From positions 201,433 through 265,432 of IMG/VR virus record IMGVR_UViG_3300049436_000052: DNA of 64,000 bases; one strand, 5' to 3'. A model generated the notes under the pieces. That model did not search any database, was not told the DNA's origin, and was given only the letters and a program-made list of their open reading frames with translations. Below, one piece after another: positions 2,891 to 37,741 of the stretch (its first letter is position 1; each line of letters starts with the position of its first letter). The DNA is from a virus. The position numbers and the translations under genes were made by a program.

Positions 2891-3271
2891 ATGCAAAAAG
2901 ATTTTAAAATTTTAGATTTCATTGGCCACCAAGGCGATGTTCAGTTCTATGCAATAGATGCTATTCCAACTGATGCAAAGAAAATTGCAAAACAATTTGT
3001 TGCTGCTTCGGAAAAAAGTGGACATGTTCATGCGTTGAATGGAAACTACGACATGTATGAACTTGAGGACGGTTTTTTATTAGATGTTAAAGAAACATCA
3101 ATATTTAACCACACTTCAAAGTCATTGTTAAATGCAGAGACTTGGGATAAAGCAACTGCATTACCTGAAGAAGATCATGGAGTTTCTGTGATTGAAAAAG
3201 GTAAATATTTTGTTGGAATTCAACAAAGATTTGACCCAATCGAAGCTGCCCGTAAAAATGTAAAAGACTAG
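2891..3271 (+). CDS. Conserved His-rich phage protein, usual partner of DUF6745-type genes
   Basis: GHQGDV...SEKSGHVH...EDH...QQRFDP motif pattern; adjacent to 1700..2767. Confidence 0.55.
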   Translation: MQKDFKILDFIGHQGDVQFYAIDAIPTDAKKIAKQFVAASEKSGHVHALNGNYDMYELEDGFLLDVKETSIFNHTSKSLLNAETWDKATALPEEDHGVSVIEKGKYFVGIQQRFDPIEAARKNVKD

Positions 3272-3543
3272 TTCTTTACATTAGAATAATAATAACATCC
3301 AAGATTTTAATAAAATAAGATTTTGGATGTTTTTTCTTTTAAATATAACCAATTCTGAAAAAATGAAAAATTATAAAGTTAGTGGATATATAAAACTTGA
3401 TAAAATATTCGAATTAAATTTATCTGCTAAAAATAAACCACAAGCACTAAAATTTACTAAGTGGTTGTATGATCTGAATAAGATAAGATTAAAAATTGGT
3501 TTAACAACAGATCATCCAACAATTATTGCTGAAGATAAATAAA

Positions 3544-3595
3544 TTAACATTTTTTAACATAAAAACTGAAACATCTATTCATTATTTTCGTATAA
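3544..3595 (+). promoter_or_regulatory. ECF-type phage promoter TTAAC-N5-TTAAC-N9-GAAAC-N16-CGTATAA
   Basis: Exact motif upstream of ORF 3629; about 21 copies in the window, co-oriented with the downstream gene. Confidence 0.85.
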
Positions 3596-3628
3596 TATAA
3601 TAAATAAACTTAATTAAAAAGAAAAACA

Positions 3629-3820
3629 ATGAAAAGATTAGTTAGATTATTTATTGTGATATTATGCGTGTATATCGTTTTTAACGCATACCAAGATACT
3701 CAAAAAAACAAAAAGTCTATTTGGTACAACATTGCTTACCAAGGAAAAAAGGTTGTTGATTTTGGCGTTGAAAAAACAAAATCAGTAGTAAATGAATTTA
3801 AATCTGGATTGAAAAATTAG
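3629..3820 (+). CDS. Small membrane-anchored hypothetical protein
   Basis: N-terminal hydrophobic segment; directly after promoter. Confidence 0.6.
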   Translation: MKRLVRLFIVILCVYIVFNAYQDTQKNKKSIWYNIAYQGKKVVDFGVEKTKSVVNEFKSGLKN

Positions 3821-3821
3821 T

Positions 3822-3950
3822 TGTTAACGTTGGTGGTATGGTTAGTTGGGGATTAGAAACCACAAACCTAGACACAAGTACAAACTTAATAAATTGATAT
3901 AATGATGAATAACGCAGAAAAACCCCAATTAACTATACCACATGTTAGCG
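3822..3950 (-). repeat. attC-like recombination site (array 1)
   Basis: TAAC...GTTAGCG cores flanking imperfect inverted repeat GTGGTATGGTTAGTTGGGG / CCCCAATTAACTATACCAC. Confidence 0.75.
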
Positions 3951-4339
3951 TTTCGGTTATGGATTTACGCATTGGGAATTTAGTTAAATTAAACGATAAA
4001 GACTATCACGCACTAGAAGAAGATGGTCAGTTGAACGATAAAAATAACATTTGGGCAGTGAAACGCATTGATGAAGATGGTGATATAAGTATTTACAATA
4101 AGATAGAAAATTTATTTGAATATGTAAATATTGAAGAAGTTGAAGGCATTAATCTAAATGACGAATTGTTGGATAAAATAAAAGTAACAACTAATGAATA
4201 TTTCAGCAAAGGTAATGGTGTTTATTGGTTTACTCGTCATAATCCTCATACTCCAATAGTTTATTTACACCAATTTCAAAATATATTTCACGCTCTAAAA
4301 ACATACGAATTACTAGTCGGTTCTTTAACTGAACGCTAA
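3902..4339 (+). CDS. Cassette-borne hypothetical protein (starts inside attC-like site)
   Basis: ATG lies in the hairpin loop; reads through GTT AGC; stop TAA is within the next CGCTAAC core. Confidence 0.75.
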   Translation: MMNNAEKPQLTIPHVSVSVMDLRIGNLVKLNDKDYHALEEDGQLNDKNNIWAVKRIDEDGDISIYNKIENLFEYVNIEEVEGINLNDELLDKIKVTTNEYFSKGNGVYWFTRHNPHTPIVYLHQFQNIFHALKTYELLVGSLTER

Positions 4340-4464
4340 CGGTTGCGTATAAAAAACGTTGCCATTTTGAAACACGAATGTTTAATTTAAAAATAAACTT
4401 AATATGAAATACAAAGTTCAATTAACCGATGAAGCTGGCAATGTTTTTTTATACGATGTTAGCC
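4334..4464 (-). repeat. attC-like recombination site (array 1)
   Basis: CGCTAAC...GTTAGCC cores; arms CGTATAAAAAACGTTGCCA / TGGCAATGTTTTTTTATACG with one unpaired base. Confidence 0.8.
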
Positions 4465-4667
4465 GTAGTTCTTGTTCTGAAAAAACACTTAATGACTTCA
4501 TTTTAGAAGCGTTACAAATTTCGGAGGATAAACGGGAACTTCCTGTAAAAATACAGTGTCCAAACGGATTAGAAGTAGCACCTTCAATTAAAATGAAATT
4601 TGAAAACTATGGAAGTCCGATACTTGGCGATAAGTTAGAAGCGATGCACATCACTTGGCGTGATTAG
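4404..4667 (+). CDS. Cassette-borne hypothetical protein (starts inside attC-like site)
   Basis: ATG in hairpin loop; body bounded by GTTAGCCGTAGTTCT and AGAATTACGGCTAAC. Confidence 0.75.
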   Translation: MKYKVQLTDEAGNVFLYDVSRSSCSEKTLNDFILEALQISEDKRELPVKIQCPNGLEVAPSIKMKFENYGSPILGDKLEAMHITWRD

Positions 4668-4673
4668 AATTAC

Positions 4674-4767
4674 GGCTAACGAATATATATATTTTTATGG
4701 TTATAAATATCATTAAATTAGATAATTACAACCATAAATTTTAAAGATTTGATTTAAATTTATAAAA
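4674..4767 (-). other. attI-like terminal site of array 1 / recombinase leader
   Basis: GGCTAAC core with no hairpin partner, then TATATAT and a 44-bp block (4724-4767) identical to 10626-10669. Confidence 0.65.
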
Positions 4768-4774
4768 ATACTAT

Positions 4775-5556
4775 ATGAAATTTGATGAACTACTAAAACA
4801 ATATTCCAATAAAATTGAATATTTCAAATATTCAAAAAGAACTAAAGAAATGTATATTCATTATACATCCAAATTTTTGATAAAAGTAAACAAATATCCA
4901 CAACATATAACATCTAAAGATTTTGAGGATTATTTGTTAAAATATAAATTCACTTCGATTTCTCAACAAAATCAAATAATAAATTCAATAAAATTTCTTT
5001 ATGAAAAGGTATTAAATAAAAAATATAATAAAATTGATTTTGAACGTCCAAGAACAGAAAAGCATTTACCACAAATAATTGATAATGGATTTTTGTTAAA
5101 TAAAATTAATCTAATACCAAATTTAAAACATAAAGCAATAATTTCTTTAGCATATTCTGTTGGTTTAAGAGTATCAGAAGTAATTAATCTTAAAATTGTG
5201 GATGTAGATTCAAAAAGAATGATAATCAATATTAATCAAGCAAAGGGTAAGAAAGATAGAATAGTTCCATTATCAGAACATATTTTAGATTTATTGAGAA
5301 AATATTGGAAAGAATATCATCCAAGAGAATATCTTTTTAATGGACAAAATTCATTACAATATTCTGCAACTAGTTGTAATCAAATAGTAAAAAAATATTT
5401 AGGAGATAAATATCATTTTCATTTACAACATTATTAGAATGTGGAACAGATCTAAGAATTATTCAAAAATTGGCTGGACATAATTCTTCTAAAACAACCG
5501 AAATTTATACACATGTGAGTACTAATGTTTTATCAAAAATTAAATTACCCTTATAA
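4775..5556 (+). pseudogene. Tyrosine recombinase (N-terminal SAM-like domain, XerD/IntI-related), frameshifted
   Basis: YSVGLRVSE and KGKKDR motifs; frame breaks at HFHL; alternative frame continues [34 protein letters not shown] to stop 5556; the LRH motif is missing. Confidence 0.9.
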
Positions 5557-5759
5557 TGATAGAAAAACAAAAAAATAAAAAGCAATCCGAAAACGACAAT
5601 ACTACAAATTTAAGTGTTATGTGTTGTTGTGCTAATTGCAAAAACTGGAAGCTTAAAACTAAAAAAACGGGTGTGCTTGGAGTTTGCAAATTAACAAGTT
5701 TTGATGCTTTTTTTAATGATGTTTGTGGTAGTCACATATTGAAAATTATAAAAAAATGA
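5556..5759 (+). CDS. Small Cys-rich hypothetical protein, possible degenerate cassette
   Basis: CANC...C...C; contains in-frame GTT ATG TGT like the cassette genes. Confidence 0.5.
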   Translation: MIEKQKNKKQSENDNTTNLSVMCCCANCKNWKLKTKKTGVLGVCKLTSFDAFFNDVCGSHILKIIKK

Positions 5760-6708
5760 CGAAAATTTAACTTAAAATATTTAAAAAGGAGAATAAAATG
5801 GATTATCACATTTCAAAAGACAGTAAGGGCAATGATTTGCCAAGATATAATAAAGCAGAAGCGTTGAAACTTGACGGTGCGATTGAGACAGATGCAACAT
5901 TAAAAAAGAACCTAGTAGTTGTGCTTAAAAATATTTTTGGGGAGGGTGTTGCAAAAATATTAGATGAAGATGAATTAAACTATCAGGTAAAAAATGAATT
6001 GGGAAGAAAGCAAACTTTCTTAATTTACCCACCTTTAAAAAACGAATAACATGAACGACATTGACAAAAAAATAATTGCATTAAGAAAACTAACAACTAA
6101 CTTTGTATTTATCGAATGGGATGTTCACGAATCTTCTGATTGTTATAAGATTTTTGATGAATATTCTAAAAATAAAGACAAAGTTATTCTTTGTAAAGTT
6201 GAGGATGGAATTGAAATGGCTATTGACAATGCAATAAAAGTAGTCGGAAAATGGCGAGATGAGTTTTTCGGAAAATAATTTTATATAAAATTTGTTTTAT
6301 GTCACCATATGATAAACTACTTTTTTATTTTTCGTTATTAATTGTAATTTTTTTACTATCGTTTCTCTACTATCATAACAAGAACAAACGTTTTAAAAAA
6401 ATAAAGTATCGAAAACTTATAAAAAAAGAAGAATTGAGAAATTTTTATCATCACTTAAATTTGTAATCAACTATGGAAAAATATAAATTTCACCTCAAAC
6501 CTGAAGAACTTGGACAATTGGATCATCATTTTGTAGATGATAATGACAAAAAGATTGCTACTTTGTTACGTGAACCTAATGATAAAGGATATAACGTTAT
6601 TACTTATTTTGAAAGTAATGAAAATAAACCACCGTTCGTACATACTTTAATTGAAGGATTTGTTGCAGTTAGAAAACTCTTAAAGAAAGTTGGAATTAAT
6701 GCTGATTT

Positions 6709-7380
6709 TCAATAATTGTTTAATTCTTGATTTACCACATCTTTTGCTTTATTCTCAGGTTTATAGAGATAATCTTGTTTTTCAGGTTCGTCATATTTCT
6801 CATCATCAAAAAATGGTATTTTAAATTTAACATTTTTAATAATTGAGTAAAAATCTTCTGCGGTTTCTAAATTTTCCCTATTGCTTAATATGGTATATCT
6901 TTCGTTATCCATTGGTTCGTTTGTCATTGTGTTGTACATATTCCATACAAAATAAACTTGATTCGAATCGTCAAATTTAGCTTGCTTTTCACCAAATATA
7001 TATGATTCCTGATTAAATTGTTTTGATAGTTTTGCAATATCATTTAATGTGATGTTTGGAACAACTAGTGAATTTTCAAAATTGCCATATTTCCCTTTGA
7101 TTTTAATAAAACCATAATTCAACGATCTTAAAGTAGATTTTAAATTATCCATTCTTTTGTTATTTTCTTCAGGACTTACTTTCATTGCTTGTGGATTTTC
7201 TGCGGTAAATATTCCAATCGTATTGACAGCATTAACATCGCCACTCATCATTCGTTTTAGTCGTGGATAACCTCCTTCATCAACATCTGCTTCATCAATA
7301 TTTTCATTAAGTTTTGGTTTGAAGGTTTTATCTAATCTGGCCATAACTTCAAACAATCTTTTCTTACTATCATTTATCAT
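6709..7380 (-). CDS. Conserved phage hypothetical protein (GIFTAENP motif), lone antisense gene
   Basis: 223 aa ORF opposing the + block; leader ending LNE...DE. Confidence 0.7.
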   Translation of the reverse strand: MINDSKKRLFEVMARLDKTFKPKLNENIDEADVDEGGYPRLKRMMSGDVNAVNTIGIFTAENPQAMKVSPEENNKRMDNLKSTLRSLNYGFIKIKGKYGNFENSLVVPNITLNDIAKLSKQFNQESYIFGEKQAKFDDSNQVYFVWNMYNTMTNEPMDNERYTILSNRENLETAEDFYSIIKNVKFKIPFFDDEKYDEPEKQDYLYKPENKAKDVVNQELNNY

Positions 7381-7499
7381 ATTGTAAATTTTTATATAAA
7401 TAGTTAAAAAATGTTAAATTAATTTGTTGTATCATATTTTTTTCTAACTTAGCCAAAACATTTTTTAGTTTTTTTCGTATAATATAGAAAATACGTAAT

Positions 7500-7859
7500 A
7501 TGTTAACAGTTAATCAAAATTTGGTAGATGAATTTGTTTTTTATTTAAAAGATGTGAAATTTCGAAATAAAATTCAAAACTTAAAACTTGAATATCAGTA
7601 TCCGATAACTAAATGTGATGGTTGGTTGTATTTAGCATTAATTATCATAAAAAAATCTAAAAGAAATCAGGGTATTGGTTCAGAAATAATTAAAGAAATT
7701 ATTAAATTTGCTGATACATACAATCTTGAAATTAAACTTTGGCCTAGTGATAAACATGGTAGTGATTACAATAGATTGATTAAATTCTATGAAAACTTGG
7801 GATTTTTTTTAATTGATAAATTTGAAAAAGAATATATGTCTTACAAAAAAATAATTTAA
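7500..7859 (+). CDS. GNAT-family acetyltransferase
   Basis: RNQGIGSEII acetyl-CoA motif A and LIKFYENLGF motif B. Confidence 0.85.
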   Translation: MLTVNQNLVDEFVFYLKDVKFRNKIQNLKLEYQYPITKCDGWLYLALIIIKKSKRNQGIGSEIIKEIIKFADTYNLEIKLWPSDKHGSDYNRLIKFYENLGFFLIDKFEKEYMSYKKII

Positions 7860-8442
7860 AGATTATGGAAATTATTCAAAAAATAAAACAATTAAATTCT
7901 GGAAAAGACAAACTGGAATTTATCTTAAATTCAATATATAGTGGTCATAAAAACTTAAGTGTTATTATGAACCTACATAAACATCTAAATCCTCTTAAAA
8001 ACGAAGAAATTGATGATTTTATGGAAGGATTGATAAATGATCTGCTTGGTTATTATGTTTTTGTTGAAAAAAACAAATTAGATGAGAATGAGTTTGTAAA
8101 AACAGCATTACAAGATCTTTTTGTTTATATGAAAAAAAATAAAGATTTAAAATTCAAATCAAAAAGATTTTCTAATTACTTGAAAATAATTTAATAACTA
8201 AATTAAAAAATATGAAGAATAAAATTATTTTTATAAAACGGTTTTTGTATATATATTGGAAATTTTTATTAATAGCAATCGTTTGTTTTATTTTGTTTTC
8301 AGTGTCATGTGGTTGTATAGAAGGTATAATTGCAACAATATTTATAATGGGATATTTATATGGGTTATATCGAATAAATTCATTATTTTAATAAAAAAAT
8401 AATTAAAATAATGATTGAATTATTAATAAAATTAGAGAATAA

Positions 8443-8901
8443 ATGAAAATTCCTGAAGACGATATATTTAAAGATTCAAATGAATGTCATAAAATTTGGC
8501 ATAAATTCTCGAATTGGTTGGTTAAAACTTTTGGAAAAGATCTTCATGGTGAATGGGAAATCGTTGAAATTACAAATGATGATGGTAAAATAGTAAAATT
8601 TAAAAGTAGAAGCTTTAACGAACTTGAACTTAGCCGAAGATTGGTTGGTTATGATGTAATGTGCAAAATTGAAAGATATGTAAAAAGATGTTGCCCTGAG
8701 ATTAAAATAATTGGTTGTGATGATTCTTATTATAGTAGTTCATTTATTTTATTAATTCCACATCCTAGGCATGGAATTACAATTATGTTCATTCCTCAAT
8801 GCACAACAATTCAAAATCAATTGTTTTTATATGATGGGCATTTCGATCTTTTGATGGAAGAATTGAAAAAAATGAAATATGTTTATAAAAATCAGATATA
8901 A
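8443..8901 (+). CDS. Hypothetical protein
   Basis: 152 aa ORF in co-oriented block. Confidence 0.65.
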   Translation: MKIPEDDIFKDSNECHKIWHKFSNWLVKTFGKDLHGEWEIVEITNDDGKIVKFKSRSFNELELSRRLVGYDVMCKIERYVKRCCPEIKIIGCDDSYYSSSFILLIPHPRHGITIMFIPQCTTIQNQLFLYDGHFDLLMEELKKMKYVYKNQI

Positions 8902-8910
8902 AATAAAAAT

Positions 8911-9243
8911 ATGAAAGAAATTCCAAAAATAGGACAAAGATACAACTGTTTTGACGATGGCAAAATAAGTTATAACAGATTATATACTGTTGATGTGAAA
9001 GAAGTAGTTCCTTTTGATAAAATAGATAAAACTACACTAAAGAAATGGAAGGAAGAAGTTGAAGAATGTTATTGGTTATATGCAAAAGAAACTGATTTTT
9101 TTATCAAGACAGAAAATGGTGAAGATGGTGATGCTGTTTTTGTAAGAACAATTAATGGTGGGTGGTTTAGTATAGGTAATTTTATGAATAGTGGTAGATT
9201 AGATGTGGATGGCGAATTAACTGAGATGCTTAATGTTACATAA
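8911..9243 (+). CDS. Conserved phage hypothetical protein
   Basis: 110 aa ORF with FDDGKI...SGRLDVDG. Confidence 0.7.
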   Translation: MKEIPKIGQRYNCFDDGKISYNRLYTVDVKEVVPFDKIDKTTLKKWKEEVEECYWLYAKETDFFIKTENGEDGDAVFVRTINGGWFSIGNFMNSGRLDVDGELTEMLNVT

Positions 9244-9498
9244 TAGTTATGTACATGACATTTAATATTTAAAACTTAATGGAAAAATTTAAAAGAGTAG
9301 CATTAGAAAGAAAATTACGAGCAGATTCTGATGGAATGCCAGTTTTTAGAGATTGTTTTGAACATGAAACTTTATTATCATTTTTTGATGATGGTGGTAA
9401 TTACGCATTTAATGAATGGTGGGAAAAAGAAGGTTCGAAACAGTTTAATGAGTGGGTTTTGAAAAATGATGAATATAAAATGTATGGTTCTTAATTGG

Positions 9499-9590
9499 CT
9501 ATAACGTTGGTAATATGAAAAGTTGGCTTTGTAGTCACTTCCAATTTACCACAAACGCTGATAGCTAATTTTTTATATTGCGTGTTGTGT
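9499..9590 (-). repeat. attC-like recombination site (array 2)
   Basis: CTATAAC...GTTGTGT cores; arms TAATATGAAAAGTTGGCT / AGCTAATTTTTTATATTG. Confidence 0.75.
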
Positions 9591-9624
9591 GTAGTACGGA
9601 TTATTAACGATAAATATTAGTAAA

Positions 9625-9807
9625 ATGAGAAATTATAGAATAGTAGAAGGTAAAATTGAGGTGGATGATTGGTTTGTTGCTTTTGGTGTTATTGGTAAAT
9701 GCACAGAAGTTGATAAAACATATGACCAAAATGAACCTAATTATAATAGTAAAGAAACAAAATGGACGTGTGGTAAACACTGTAAAAAAATTGAATTTAT
9801 AGACTAA
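9625..9807 (+). CDS. Cassette-borne hypothetical protein
   Basis: Bounded by GTTGTGTGTAGTAC and complementary GTATTACACACAAC. Confidence 0.7.
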   Translation: MRNYRIVEGKIEVDDWFVAFGVIGKCTEVDKTYDQNEPNYNSKETKWTCGKHCKKIEFID

Positions 9808-9818
9808 CGTAGTATTAC

Positions 9819-9948
9819 ACACAACGGTGAAGCTATGACCAGTAAAGGATTACAGAGCGATGCGCTATCAACCGATACCCAACTGGATGCGAGCTGAAAT
9901 GTTACAAGCAAGCACTGAAACCTTTATTGGTTATAGCTTATGTTAGCG
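9819..9948 (-). repeat. attC-like recombination site (array 2)
   Basis: ACACAAC...GTTAGCG cores; arms AGCTATGACCAGTAAAGG / CCTTTATTGGTTATAGCT. Confidence 0.8.
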
Positions 9949-9993
9949 TTTCGTACTTTTTAAATCGAATTATAAACTTTTAAATATTAAAAA

Positions 9994-10272
9994 ATGGAAA
10001 ATCAAAATTACTTAACCCTTAAATGGGGAACACTTAAAAGCTGGTATTTTACAAACTCAGAAAAGGGAAAAGAACTTTTAAAAGAATACCGTGAAATCGG
10101 TTCATCTTTTAGTGCTATGGCTCAAAATGATACTCCACGACAAAAGGAAATTATTTGCGAACTTATCGACTTATGTGATGGTGATACAATTTATCTCGAT
10201 TGGGATGGTGAAGATGTGTCAAAAGAGAAAGCAAAAGAATATGTGATGAACTATGGTAAAGAGCGTTCTTAG
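9994..10272 (+). CDS. Cassette-borne conserved phage hypothetical protein (LKWGTLK motif)
   Basis: Bounded by GTTAGCGTTTCGTACT and AGTATGAACGCTAAC. Confidence 0.75.
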   Translation: MENQNYLTLKWGTLKSWYFTNSEKGKELLKEYREIGSSFSAMAQNDTPRQKEIICELIDLCDGDTIYLDWDGEDVSKEKAKEYVMNYGKERS

Positions 10273-10278
10273 TATGAA

Positions 10279-10408
10279 CGCTAACGTTAAAATGTAAGGT
10301 GTCGTGGCTACCTAATAAAAGCTACATATTTGTAAATTTAGATAAATATTAATATGAAAAACGAAACTTCAAAAACCAAGCAGCCATGCACTTTACATAG
10401 TGTTATAG
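10279..10408 (-). repeat. attC-like recombination site (array 2)
   Basis: CGCTAAC...GTTATAG cores; arms ATGTAAGGTGTCGTGGCT / AGCCATGCACTTTACAT. Confidence 0.8.
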
Positions 10409-10581
10409 CCAGTTATTCAATAGAGCAAAAAGAAGACAAAGCTCTTAGCTGGTGGGGTGTTTTAACAAACAGACAAAAATCAAAATATGCTAAAAAGTAC
10501 TATAATAAGTTAAGTATTGAAATAAAAACCAGCGAAAAAATAGTTATATGGGAAAATAACGCTTGGGGTAATTGGCTATAA
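10354..10581 (+). CDS. Cassette-borne hypothetical protein (starts inside attC-like site)
   Basis: ATG in loop; GTTATAGCCAGTTA pairs with terminal TAATTGGCTATAAC, which holds the stop codon. Confidence 0.75.
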   Translation: MKNETSKTKQPCTLHSVIASYSIEQKEDKALSWWGVLTNRQKSKYAKKYYNKLSIEIKTSEKIVIWENNAWGNWL

Positions 10582-10669
10582 CTATTATATATATTTTTAT
10601 GACAGTAAGTTACTTATTTAAAATAAATTACAACCATAAATTTTAAAGATTTGATTTAAATTTATAAAA
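10576..10669 (-). other. attI-like terminal site of array 2 (no adjacent recombinase)
   Basis: CTATAAC core then TATATATATTTTTATG and a 44-bp block identical to 4724-4767. Confidence 0.65.
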
Positions 10670-11783
10670 TCATTATTTTTTAATCTTTTTTTCTTATTTT
10701 TGTAAAAAATATTTTTAATTTATGGAAATAAGAAAAAAAGCAAATGCCTACAATATAGAATATAAACAACTTTTAAATTCAATAGAACGGTTAAAAGAAG
10801 AAGTTTTTGAACGTTTAAAATTTCTATCAAAGAAATATCCAGAAACAATTCTAATAGATAATATTACTTCAGAAATTATTTTATCAACAACCGATAGAAA
10901 CAGCATTTCGTTAGAAACTCAAATAAATCTAATAAAGATATTTGAAACAATGATTGAAAATATTAATAATAAATATGTTCAAAAGCAAATTAATTTTGAG
11001 ATAAATGATAATAATTAAAATTATTTTGTTGTTGTTTACTATAAGTGAAATTATAGTTCACAATACTCCACTTTACTATAAAAGTAAAAACGAAAAAATA
11101 GTAAGATGTAATTACGAATTTGTTCAGATTAGTTTAACAAAAAACGTCATAGTAGTGTTTAATATCGTTGAAAACATAATTTGTTTATTTGATTATCAAC
11201 GCAACATAAATGGCATATCAGTCTGCATTTGCAACATAACAATTAAAATAAATAACGAATAAAAATGGGAAAGAAAAATAATAAATGTGAAGTGTGTGGT
11301 AAAAAGATAAAGTGGAAAGAAAAACTTTGCCAAGATTGTGAAAAAGATAATAAAATTTCTTTATATTTACTTTATAGATATCTTACAGATGTTGAAAAAG
11401 TTCCATCAGATTATGATTATTAGAGGTTTATTACAAAAAAATATTATTAAGTTATTTTGCATTGAAAAAGCATATCTACGTCCAAATTTTATTATTGGTT
11501 TAATTAGTTTAGATTTAGAAAATTTTCTTTATGATGAAATGTCAATAGAAACTTATTTAGATAATATTATTACAGTAGATAATATCTTTATAAAAATTAT
11601 TAAACAATAAGATGAGAAATATTTTAAATGAAAAACTGTGCGATGTATTTGAAATAAGACATCAAAATTATAGATACCCTCAATTTATCACAATTCCACC
11701 ACATAAAATAGAATTGGTGTTTTTCTTTTTCCAAATGATGAATGATTTTCGTGAAGTTCCTTTTTTGATTGAAATTTAACAAG

Positions 11784-36995: not shown

Positions 36996-37012
36996 GAGAT
37001 ATTATTTAGGAG

Positions 37013-37078
37013 TTTAAATCAAATCTTTAAATTTTATAGTCATACTGACTAAGTATTGAGGATATATAACCGTTAAGC
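37013..37078 (+). other. attI-like terminal site of array 3, directly upstream of the ECF sigma gene
   Basis: TTTAAATCAAATCTTTAA (reverse complement of the motif at 4741 and 10643), ATATATA, then GTTAAGC core. Confidence 0.6.
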
Positions 37079-37357
37079 GCAATAAAGCAACTCATCTAAA
37101 ATGCTCTTAGGTAAATTTGGAGATTCACACGATTTTAGAAATATCCAAATTTGAACATCACCACTATCCATCATTTGATGGATTATATCAGTTACAACAT
37201 AAAATCCTTTTTTTAACTTTAAAAAATCTTGGTCATAATCTTTTTCATATCCCTTTTGCTCTTTTCGAATAGCTATAAATTGATTTTCTTTTAATAATCT
37301 TAAATCAAATGAAAACCCAATATTAAAAATTTCTTTATTATCAATAAAAACTTTCAT
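37073..37357 (-). CDS. Cassette-borne hypothetical protein
   Basis: Bounded by GTTAAGCGCAAT (37072) and AATGTGCTTAAC (ending 37378); stop codon inside core; ATG at 37357 preferred over TTG. Confidence 0.7.
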   Translation of the reverse strand: MKVFIDNKEIFNIGFSFDLRLLKENQFIAIRKEQKGYEKDYDQDFLKLKKGFYVVTDIIHQMMDSGDVQIWIFLKSCESPNLPKSILDELLYCA

Positions 37358-37371
37358 AATCAATAAAATGT

Positions 37372-37466
37372 GCTTAACGTGCAATATAAATCAGTTGCTA
37401 TTAAGCTATTTTGTAAATTTGAAGCGTATCTGTTGGCAACCGCTTCATATTGCCTTACCGTTAGCT
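37372..37466 (+). repeat. attC-like recombination site (array 3)
   Basis: GCTTAAC (RYYYAAC)...GTTAGCT; arms GCAATATAAATCAGTTGC / GCAACCGCTTCATATTGC. Confidence 0.8.
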
Positions 37467-37741
37467 GCAATGCCCTCAAACTCATCCCATAATTCTTTTT
37501 CGGTATGTGGGTAATTGATTTCATACCATTCCCAAAAGTCAAAGTATCGCTGTCTGAAATATCTTAGGTTTTCCAATTCTTCTTTATGCGTATCAATTAC
37601 CCACTGTTCTGGTTTTCCACCAAATCCTGCAACAGGTAACGAAGGTATAACAGCAAATAAATCCAATACTTGCTTTTGTGTGTCAGCAACAGTTATCTTT
37701 CTATCATCAAGTTTCTTAAATATTTCTTTTATCTTTTCCAT
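37445..37741 (-). CDS. Hypothetical protein, probable degenerate cassette
   Basis: Ends reading through the GCTAAC core; contains in-frame GTT ATA. Confidence 0.6.
   Translation of the reverse strand: MEKIKEIFKKLDDRKITVADTQKQVLDLFAVIPSLPVAGFGGKPEQWVIDTHKEELENLRYFRQRYFDFWEWYEINYPHTEKELWDEFEGIAANGKAI

Follow-up and report, generated by a model that had tools for sequence, protein, structure and literature searches.

Integrons are the textbook bacterial gene-capture device and are thought to depend on a specialised integrase. The pdif modules of Acinetobacter plasmids and the single-strand integration of CTX phage at dif employ 28-bp XerC/XerD sites and host enzymes. In phages, clusters of attC sites without an integrase (CALINs) were documented in virulent members, e.g., Polaribacter phage P12002L, a flavobacterium phage. 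IntI1 was found to recombine several of these phage sites, which were interpreted as parts of bacterial integrons that phages carry (Qi et al. 2023, PMC9892861). The PeSL cassettes (early promoter plus terminator stem-loop) of T4-type phages are promoter-plus-terminator repeats, for which recombination by homology was proposed (PMC2839356, PMC4122927). Here we describe array 2, a row of three hairpin-headed small-gene cassettes in a phage genome. It lies in a window of 64,000 nucleotides, bases 201433-265432 of the IMG/VR virus record IMGVR_UViG_3300049436_000052 (334,326 bp, 25% GC). With a probability of about 0.75, array 2 represents an orphan platform within an integron-like system of site-specific recombination that phages carry. 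No description of this virus-borne, integron-like gene-shuffling system was found in the literature searched.

Architecture of Array 2

Array 2 consists of three cassettes, each headed by a hairpin site that runs from AAC to GTT, and closes with a terminal landing site, T2 (Table 1). A preliminary description of the window had placed three hairpins with unrelated arms here. The AAC...GTT boundaries were found within 4–5 nt of its coordinates, and the arms of the three sites are indeed mutually unrelated. All three sites are matched by R1, a covariance model obtained from an alignment of 69 short sites, all from other phages. The R1 score of h2a is the best of the whole genome, and this site is 70–83% identical to the largest short-site family of other phages. 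Its canonical long stem is formed only when G-T pairs are allowed, and the top strand folds better than the bottom strand (−20.7 against −12.0 kcal/mol, RNA parameters). For h2b, a DNA fold z-score of −3.5 and a hairpin-scan score of 18.5 were obtained. The loop of h2c holds the ATG of open reading frame (ORF) c3, and the GTT of this site is an in-frame codon.

The self-complementary gene ends noticed earlier are present as well. Comparison of the start of each cassette body with the reverse complement of its end gave 13/16, 9/16, and 13/16 matching positions for the three cassettes, whereas the two flanks of one hairpin match at only 4–7/16. The array ends in a 90-nt site after its last AAC, and the 44-nt block of this site, which the preliminary description had reported as common to both array termini, is identical between 10626-10669 and 4724-4767 of array 1. 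The block is spaced 55 nt from the core, a spacing that matches T1 and the loci L045 and L012.

The last cassette and gene X, the gene before the array, were said to end alike, and they do. The 14-nt sequence TAATTGGCTATAAC is present in exactly two copies in the window (9492-9505 and 10569-10582), with 0 expected by chance; the two copies bracket all three cassettes. The first copy starts at the stop codon of gene X and is a canonical left flank ending in TAAC. Gene X itself is probably not a cassette because its homologue on the metagenome contig L110, the only relative found (55% identical), is without a hairpin or a TAAC end. The 14-nt repeat may record an en-bloc event. Identity of the distal flank with the landing-site flank as a general rule was rejected (0/29 other arrays).

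It had been noted that the hairpins might prove to be simple terminators or processing stems with invariant gene content in relatives. Neither part was borne out, as no terminator-like site is present in 3300-11200 and the gene content varies in relatives (see below). Promoter-like sites in the same interval are not above the shuffled expectation. R1 matches 8 sites in the entire genome and no more, distributed over 5 loci: array 1 (two sites), array 2 (three), window 37366-37472 on the minus strand (one), genome 184898-185040 (one), and genome 80362-80504 (one). As these are the only R1 sites, and as there are no terminator-like sites and no match for the hairpins in Rfam, the hairpins are not generic stems.

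Table 1. Features of array 2 and of the recombinase locus of array 1 (window positions).
Feature	Position	Strand	Remarks
Gene X (71 aa)	9279..9494	+	Distal flank of array 2
Site h2a, head of cassette 1	9503..9586 (84 nt, short class)	+	R1 75.8 bits, E 1e-13
Cassette 1 body	9587..9822	+	Inverted-repeat ends 13/16; ORF c1 9625-9807 (60 aa)
Site h2b, head of cassette 2	9823..9944 (122 nt, long class)	+	R1 39.4 bits, E 8e-6
Cassette 2 body	9945..10282	+	Ends complementary 9/16 (over 9 nt); ORF c2 9994-10272 (92 aa)
Site h2c, head of cassette 3	10283..10404 (122 nt, long class)	+	R1 37.5 bits, E 2e-5
ORF c3 (75 aa)	10354..10581	+	Body end is the same 14 nt as at gene X (10569-10582)
T2, terminal landing site (attI-like)	10579..10669	+	Core TAAC then TATTATATATA, plus 44-nt block
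T1, landing site of array 1	4674..4767	+	Paralogous to T2, adjoining the recombinase gene
Tyrosine recombinase, broken	4775..5556	+	220 aa in one frame, 48 aa in another

The Hairpin-Site Family

The comparison set comprised 80 IMG/VR loci, which were fetched around homologues of the recombinase and scanned for hairpins bounded by AAC and GTT. Since the scan required AAC and GTT for picking sites, those letters are imposed. The background of the scan is 0–1 matches per shuffled 334-kb genome, and the matches in the real genome are essentially those of the arrays. Across the 80 loci, hairpins accumulate immediately upstream of the gene of a 266-aa Xer-like recombinase and share its strand; one array can contain as many as 16 of them. 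Array 2's three sites belong to this family, and their R1 scores are within the range of sites beside uninterrupted recombinase genes.

Two main size classes, 84–90 nt and 120–128 nt, were found, together with further classes of ~46 nt (mini) and ~190 nt (15/20 sites of the latter hold an ATG inside). The mini sites, ~46 nt from AAC to GTT, were skipped by the length limits of the scan; they repeat at cassette borders in L030 (1815-1880 and four more copies) and likewise in L038. Beyond the required letters, conservation is observed at A-T-K (−9 to −7), at M-T before AAC, and at G-K-T-T after AAC, and on the GTT side at T-A-T-A (−10 to −7 before GTT), at T before GTT, and at A-K after it. The alignment of 69 short sites contains 24 predicted pairs, 19 of them with compensatory changes, and a nearly invariant G-T pair adjoins the AAC/GTT core.

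Some other approaches were less productive. Ungapped or strictly anchored hairpin scans were too strict and missed known sites, and a plain list of inverted repeats is uninformative at 25% GC. Counts of the words GCTAAC and GTTAGC gave no genome-wide enrichment. Megablast of window 3000-11500 against cultured phages gave no match, nor did the family-1 hairpin against the same collection.

The Mobile Unit and Cassette Turnover

Complementary ends are widespread in the family: 129 of 202 cassettes have ends that are complementary at all 4 variable flank positions, compared with 2% of random pairs and 1.4% of same-hairpin flanks. This is the signature that integrons show for exchange at the site edge.

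The position of the exchange was revealed by L030 and L038, which are 97–100% identical and carry their cassette blocks in different order. All breaks are located at TAAC, with identity ending exactly at ATAAC, and the moved block begins with TAAC and its hairpin. One and the same cassette end adjoins the landing-site core in L030 and a small hairpin in L038; this junction between cassette and core shows that the core takes part in recombination. When near-identical hairpins were compared by their flanks, 11 pairs had only the downstream flank in common and 1 pair only the upstream flank. From the L030/L038 breaks and this flank linkage, the mobile unit is a hairpin with its following gene, and the exchange takes place at AAC or next to it. 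A hairpin-first unit fits the start codons inside the loops (97 of the 158 long sites have an ATG there, and for 70 of these 97 the GTT is in frame) and an array that ends in a bare AAC and then the landing site. The converse unit, a gene together with the hairpin that follows it, was rejected on the basis of the terminus, the loop start codons, the flank linkage, and the L030/L038 breaks.

Among the genes of array 2, c2 has 17 homologues in IMG/VR. Four of these (L088-L091) reside in arrays with other heads and unrelated neighbours, and the homology of L089 to array 2 stops at TAAC; the 13 other contigs have no hairpins nearby. The family of c2 is a strongly conserved ~90-aa phage family with 18 invariant columns, found on contigs that differ widely in GC content. 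The fold predicted for c2 is confident (predicted local distance difference test score, pLDDT, 84), with no fold match in the PDB, and no Pfam or PHROG match was found for X, c1, c2, or c3.

Heads can also be compared within the genome. The site of a third array, array 3, is 81% identical to h2c and has the same first 17 codons, followed by a different gene body (123 aa in array 3). Contig ends fall within 200 nt of the recombinase gene more often upstream (12/80) than downstream (4), as expected if arrays vary within populations. In L026 (327 kb; recombinase ORF uninterrupted, 268 aa), the gene that follows T2 appears to be present at the syntenic place and the array absent from it, a weak comparison at 37% identity. 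The search for relatives of the downstream 98-aa gene found none.

Landing Sites and Satellite Arrays

At 46 loci, TAAC followed by an AT-rich run of consensus TATTATATATA is located 35–57 nt upstream of the recombinase ATG, and one-base variants of the consensus are present at other loci. The core of T2 equals the consensus at every non-imposed position, while that of T1 has two rare bases. Landing sites are found at four places in this genome. The 20-nt core of the 44-nt block was found in only one other IMG/VR contig; the block is therefore specific to the lineage and does not belong to the landing site in general. In L009 and L010, a match to AAC plus AT-run 9.1 kb past the recombinase gene was discarded; there are no hairpin sites there and it looks like chance.

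Arrays that end in their own core away from a recombinase gene are also present in other phages. L012 has four arrays, each ending in its own core, three of them satellites without a recombinase; L049 has two arrays, each with its own core, one of them a satellite. Each of the two has one recombinase gene, matching the query over its full length. Recombinase-less satellite arrays are thus recurrent among phages. The earlier claim of a second cassette array with the same terminal site is upheld by the recombinase-linked site family, the family-wide core, and these satellites.

The origin of the satellite landing sites can be read to some extent from what follows their cores. In L012 and L049, the stretch corresponding to the 44-nt block is the first part of the recombinase coding sequence, and in their satellite termini what is left of the first ~60 nt of that gene can still be recognised immediately behind the core. 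A resemblance to this coding stretch, with the 55-nt spacing unchanged, is also seen in the block common to T1, T2, T3, and the site near 37020. Taken together, the remnants and the common spacing show that satellite landing sites descend from complete platforms, by duplication or deletion.

The Recombinase Gene

PF00589 matches one place in the whole 334-kb genome, the broken gene beside T1. The nearest recombinase gene to array 2 is therefore this one, which ends 3.9 kb upstream. The preliminary description had given array 2 as lacking a recombinase, in which it was right; the intact copy elsewhere in the genome that it had proposed to look for is absent by the same search. The C-terminal box of the recombinase (...GH...TTEIYTHV) continues in another frame after the stop of the 220-aa frame. 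Relatives are found by the thousands in metagenomes, at 263–268 aa and 60–76% identity, and compared with them the window copy misses ~19 nt encoding LLRHSCF, including the Arg of the HxxR box, with a shift of the frame. This deletion is as read in the assembly, where an assembly error is possible. Shorter forms of the recombinase, of 223 and 230 aa, were also seen in the protein search (P0034 and P0116).

The family was compared with the models of described recombinases. The full-length members P0002 and P0049 score 151 and 147 bits against the IntI model TIGR02249 (cut-off 265 bits), whereas a true IntI, that of Shewanella phage M16-3, scores 394 bits and has insertions that are absent from this family. 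The scores against the Xer equivalog models are likewise below the cut-offs (XerA 180/220, XerD 137/330, and XerC 131/335). The family is Xer-like and is not IntI.

As the only recombinase of the genome lost its HxxR box, array 2 would be an orphan that is mobile only with outside help. It looks frozen unless an intact relative acts in trans, brought by a co-infecting phage or possibly by a Bacteroidota host. Of the earlier proposal that array 2 is a satellite that could be serviced in trans, the satellite part is retained and the supply by the phage's own enzyme is not, given the deleted HxxR box; an outside enzyme is plausible in principle.

Proposed Mechanism and Alternative Explanations

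In the mechanism that we favour, a cassette would consist of a folded-strand site (short, ~86 nt, or long, ~123 nt, from AAC to GTT) and the small gene after it. The cassettes would follow one another head to tail and abut a landing site that has TAAC and an AT-rich run as its core. The ~266-aa Xer-like tyrosine recombinase would most likely cut and join at or just beside AAC on the gene-sense strand, both at the left hairpin edge and inside the landing-site core. The hairpin with its downstream gene could then be released as a circle and reinserted beside the landing site; where the head is long, it would also contribute the start codon of the gene and its first ~20 codons. The data show directly that the sites form one family, that they are linked to the recombinase gene, where exactly the breaks lie, that the landing-site core has a role in recombination, and that other phages have satellite arrays. 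The recombinase as catalyst, the folded single strand as substrate, and the action in trans are what we infer from these data. The gene-sense (top) strand folds better in 212 of 229 sites, and this strand asymmetry, together with the G-T pairs, is the sole support for recombination of one folded strand.

Several observations speak against this mechanism or fit it poorly. The recombinase resident in the genome is dead, and neither recombination as such nor excised circles or population variants of array 2 were observed. A before-and-after comparison of array 2 would need a close relative of this phage, and the searches found none; the c1 and c3 cassettes are without relatives in any collection searched, IMG/VR included. 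The 14-nt repeat that flanks the array is not predicted by the model and has no counterpart in the 29 other arrays. Strand bias and loop start codons also fit a role at the RNA level. Finally, 118 of 132 near-identical hairpin pairs share neither flank. Because of these pairs and of the case of h2c and array 3, heads seem to be exchanged at the GTT edge also, or to be added to genes by a process outside the one-crossover model.

The alternative to which we give most room is that a full copy of the recombinase once stood beside T2 and was later deleted, array 2 being a fossil since. We hold this to be doubtful, though well worth considering, since the recombinase-gene remnants after the satellite cores of L012 and L049 and the similar block of T1, T2, T3, and the site near 37020, at the same spacing, are what such a history would leave. 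Against it, no recombinase coding trace is present after the block of T2, whose core is fully canonical, more so than that of T1, and the sites of array 2 score like those beside uninterrupted recombinase genes. Moreover, L012 has retained three satellites beside a single recombinase gene with a full-length match, and useless satellites would hardly be expected to persist in this way.

That the hairpins are only structured 5′ leaders, acting in translation control, processing, or stability, with the recombinase adjacent incidentally, is very unlikely. The better fold of the gene-sense strand, the many G-T (G-U in RNA) pairs, and the in-frame start codons of the long loops agree with leaders, and an additional RNA role of the hairpins is possible. 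Leaders alone would leave unexplained the complementary ends 200–400 nt apart, and they do not account for sites that occur only next to one recombinase family in arrays ending in a conserved core, or for near-identical phages that break exactly at TAAC, once against the landing-site core; the lack of Rfam matches and of terminators points the same way. Homologous recombination between repeated regulatory motifs, in the manner of PeSL and with no dedicated enzyme, is less credible still and can be nearly dismissed. A hyperplastic phage region with small genes of no assigned function would suit it, as would the hairpin families shared between different phages. The unrelated arms of array 2, however, provide no homology, with only AAC and GTT invariant (and imposed by the scan); the breaks are exact to the base, and there is no promoter-plus-terminator motif.

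If the site-specific mechanism is right, the integron logic of folded sites, landing site, and stacked cassettes is also at work in viruses, where the enzyme is a plain Xer-like one and a genome has several landing sites. It would be a second, independently evolved case for the use of folded single strands by tyrosine recombinases and for the origin of cassette sites. Should the enzyme act in trans, each phage would have many independent slots for accessory genes, presumably of host takeover or counter-defence, and co-infecting phages could swap such genes precisely. To this, array 2 adds that recombinase-less arrays keep a perfect landing site, that satellites are recurrent, and that they descend from complete platforms. 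A more far-reaching proposal, which we advance tentatively and would not yet bet on, is that of a gene-assembly device. In phages, mostly of Bacteroidota, one small Xer-like enzyme would serve several landing sites in trans by way of folded hairpins, heads and bodies would be separately exchangeable and joined in frame at GTT, and capture would also supply the start codon and the N-terminus.

Neighbouring Genes and Other Loci

The genes around array 2 are nearly all small, with no assigned function, and on the plus strand. Two genes before the array, a 110-aa gene (8911-9243) has a 53% identical homologue in L055, which directly precedes the first hairpin of a 14-site array.

Two of the other loci with R1 sites are single-site arrays. 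The one at window 37005-37472 (minus strand) has a short-class site (37472-37366, R1 59 bits), a single cassette with an ORF of ~95 aa, and a terminal site that combines a TAAC core with the lineage-specific block described above. It is followed by a 217-aa ORF (36995-36342), by eye a putative sigma-70/extracytoplasmic function (ECF)-type factor. Array 3, at genome 184898-185437 (outside the window; L002, L120), has one long site and a terminal site with 90% identity to T1.

Chromosomal homologues of the recombinase, 40–48% identical, were found in the Bacteroidota genomes L133, L146, L169, L191, L199, L205, and L207, which include Maribacter, Arenibacter, and Winogradskyella. At these loci, arrays of R1-type sites are located downstream of the recombinase gene, on the opposite strand. 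A GGATAT...ATATCC inverted repeat is present at the 3′ end of the recombinase gene in 3 of the 7 closely read loci (L146, L169, and L205). These loci look like an ‘inverted’ bacterial cousin of the phage system and would point to a Bacteroidota host.

A related locus is also available in culture. Polaribacter phage Freya_10 (MT732472.1; L108) has at 3791-4146 a 188-nt hairpin whose loop holds the ATG of Freya10_10, with complementary cassette ends and a TAAC site just before the integrase gene (40% identical). In Freya_1 to Freya_10, the integrase is located 0.1 to 4.2 kb from the record start. A Freya phage could serve as a laboratory model.

Comparison with Known Systems

The closest parallel is provided by integrons (IntI, attI, attC). 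As in attC-type sites, the sites of array 2 and its family have an inverse core and paired arms that are conserved in structure and not in sequence; both systems employ folded imperfect palindromes with an AAC/GTT inverse core and covarying arms. The cassette boundary is at the site core, with complementary ends, and exchange at AAC on the folding strand is the integron rule that the phage system would follow. In both, the place of new cassettes is directly at a landing site that adjoins the recombinase gene; in the phages this site recombines with cassette sites, as observed for L030/L038. The recombinase gene is on the folding strand, downstream of the array, in both. The order of array, landing site, and recombinase gene on the gene-sense strand of the phages is that found on the recombining (bottom) strand of integrons.

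The differences are equally clear. The phage enzyme is without the IntI-specific insertion. The cassette genes are on the folding strand and read toward the landing site, and each site stands in front of its gene, with the start codon inside the site in the long class. Site sizes are fixed (~46, 86, 123, and 190 nt), and the wider core is TAACG / TGTTA instead of the integron RYYYAAC / GTTRRRY. The landing site is like attI by function only, with no sequence relation to attI1. Finally, the satellites carry their own copy of the landing site, and the carriers are phages.

CALINs show that recombinase-less arrays exist, and those of phages are, like array 2, attC-like clusters without an integron integrase. 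With 3 sites, array 2 is comparable to a CALIN, defined by at least 2 attC sites and no integrase nearby, with the limit that its sites were counted by R1 and those of CALINs by the attC model of IntegronFinder. Compared by description, the phage CALINs (PMC9892861) have no phage recombinase, landing site, size classes, or head-plus-gene unit described.

PeSL cassettes are the closest phage precedent, as small genes bounded by stem-loops in hyperplastic regions that are swapped between relatives. The early promoter and terminator stem-loop that define them are absent from array 2; the phage system differs further by its unrelated arms, by the linked recombinase gene, and by breaks that are exact at a 3-nt core. 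With the Xer-dependent elements, it has in common a small Xer-type enzyme and modules with inverted sites or a folded single strand. Unlike those elements, it has 84–122-nt hairpins and a phage-encoded enzyme that scores below the XerC, XerD, and XerA cut-offs.

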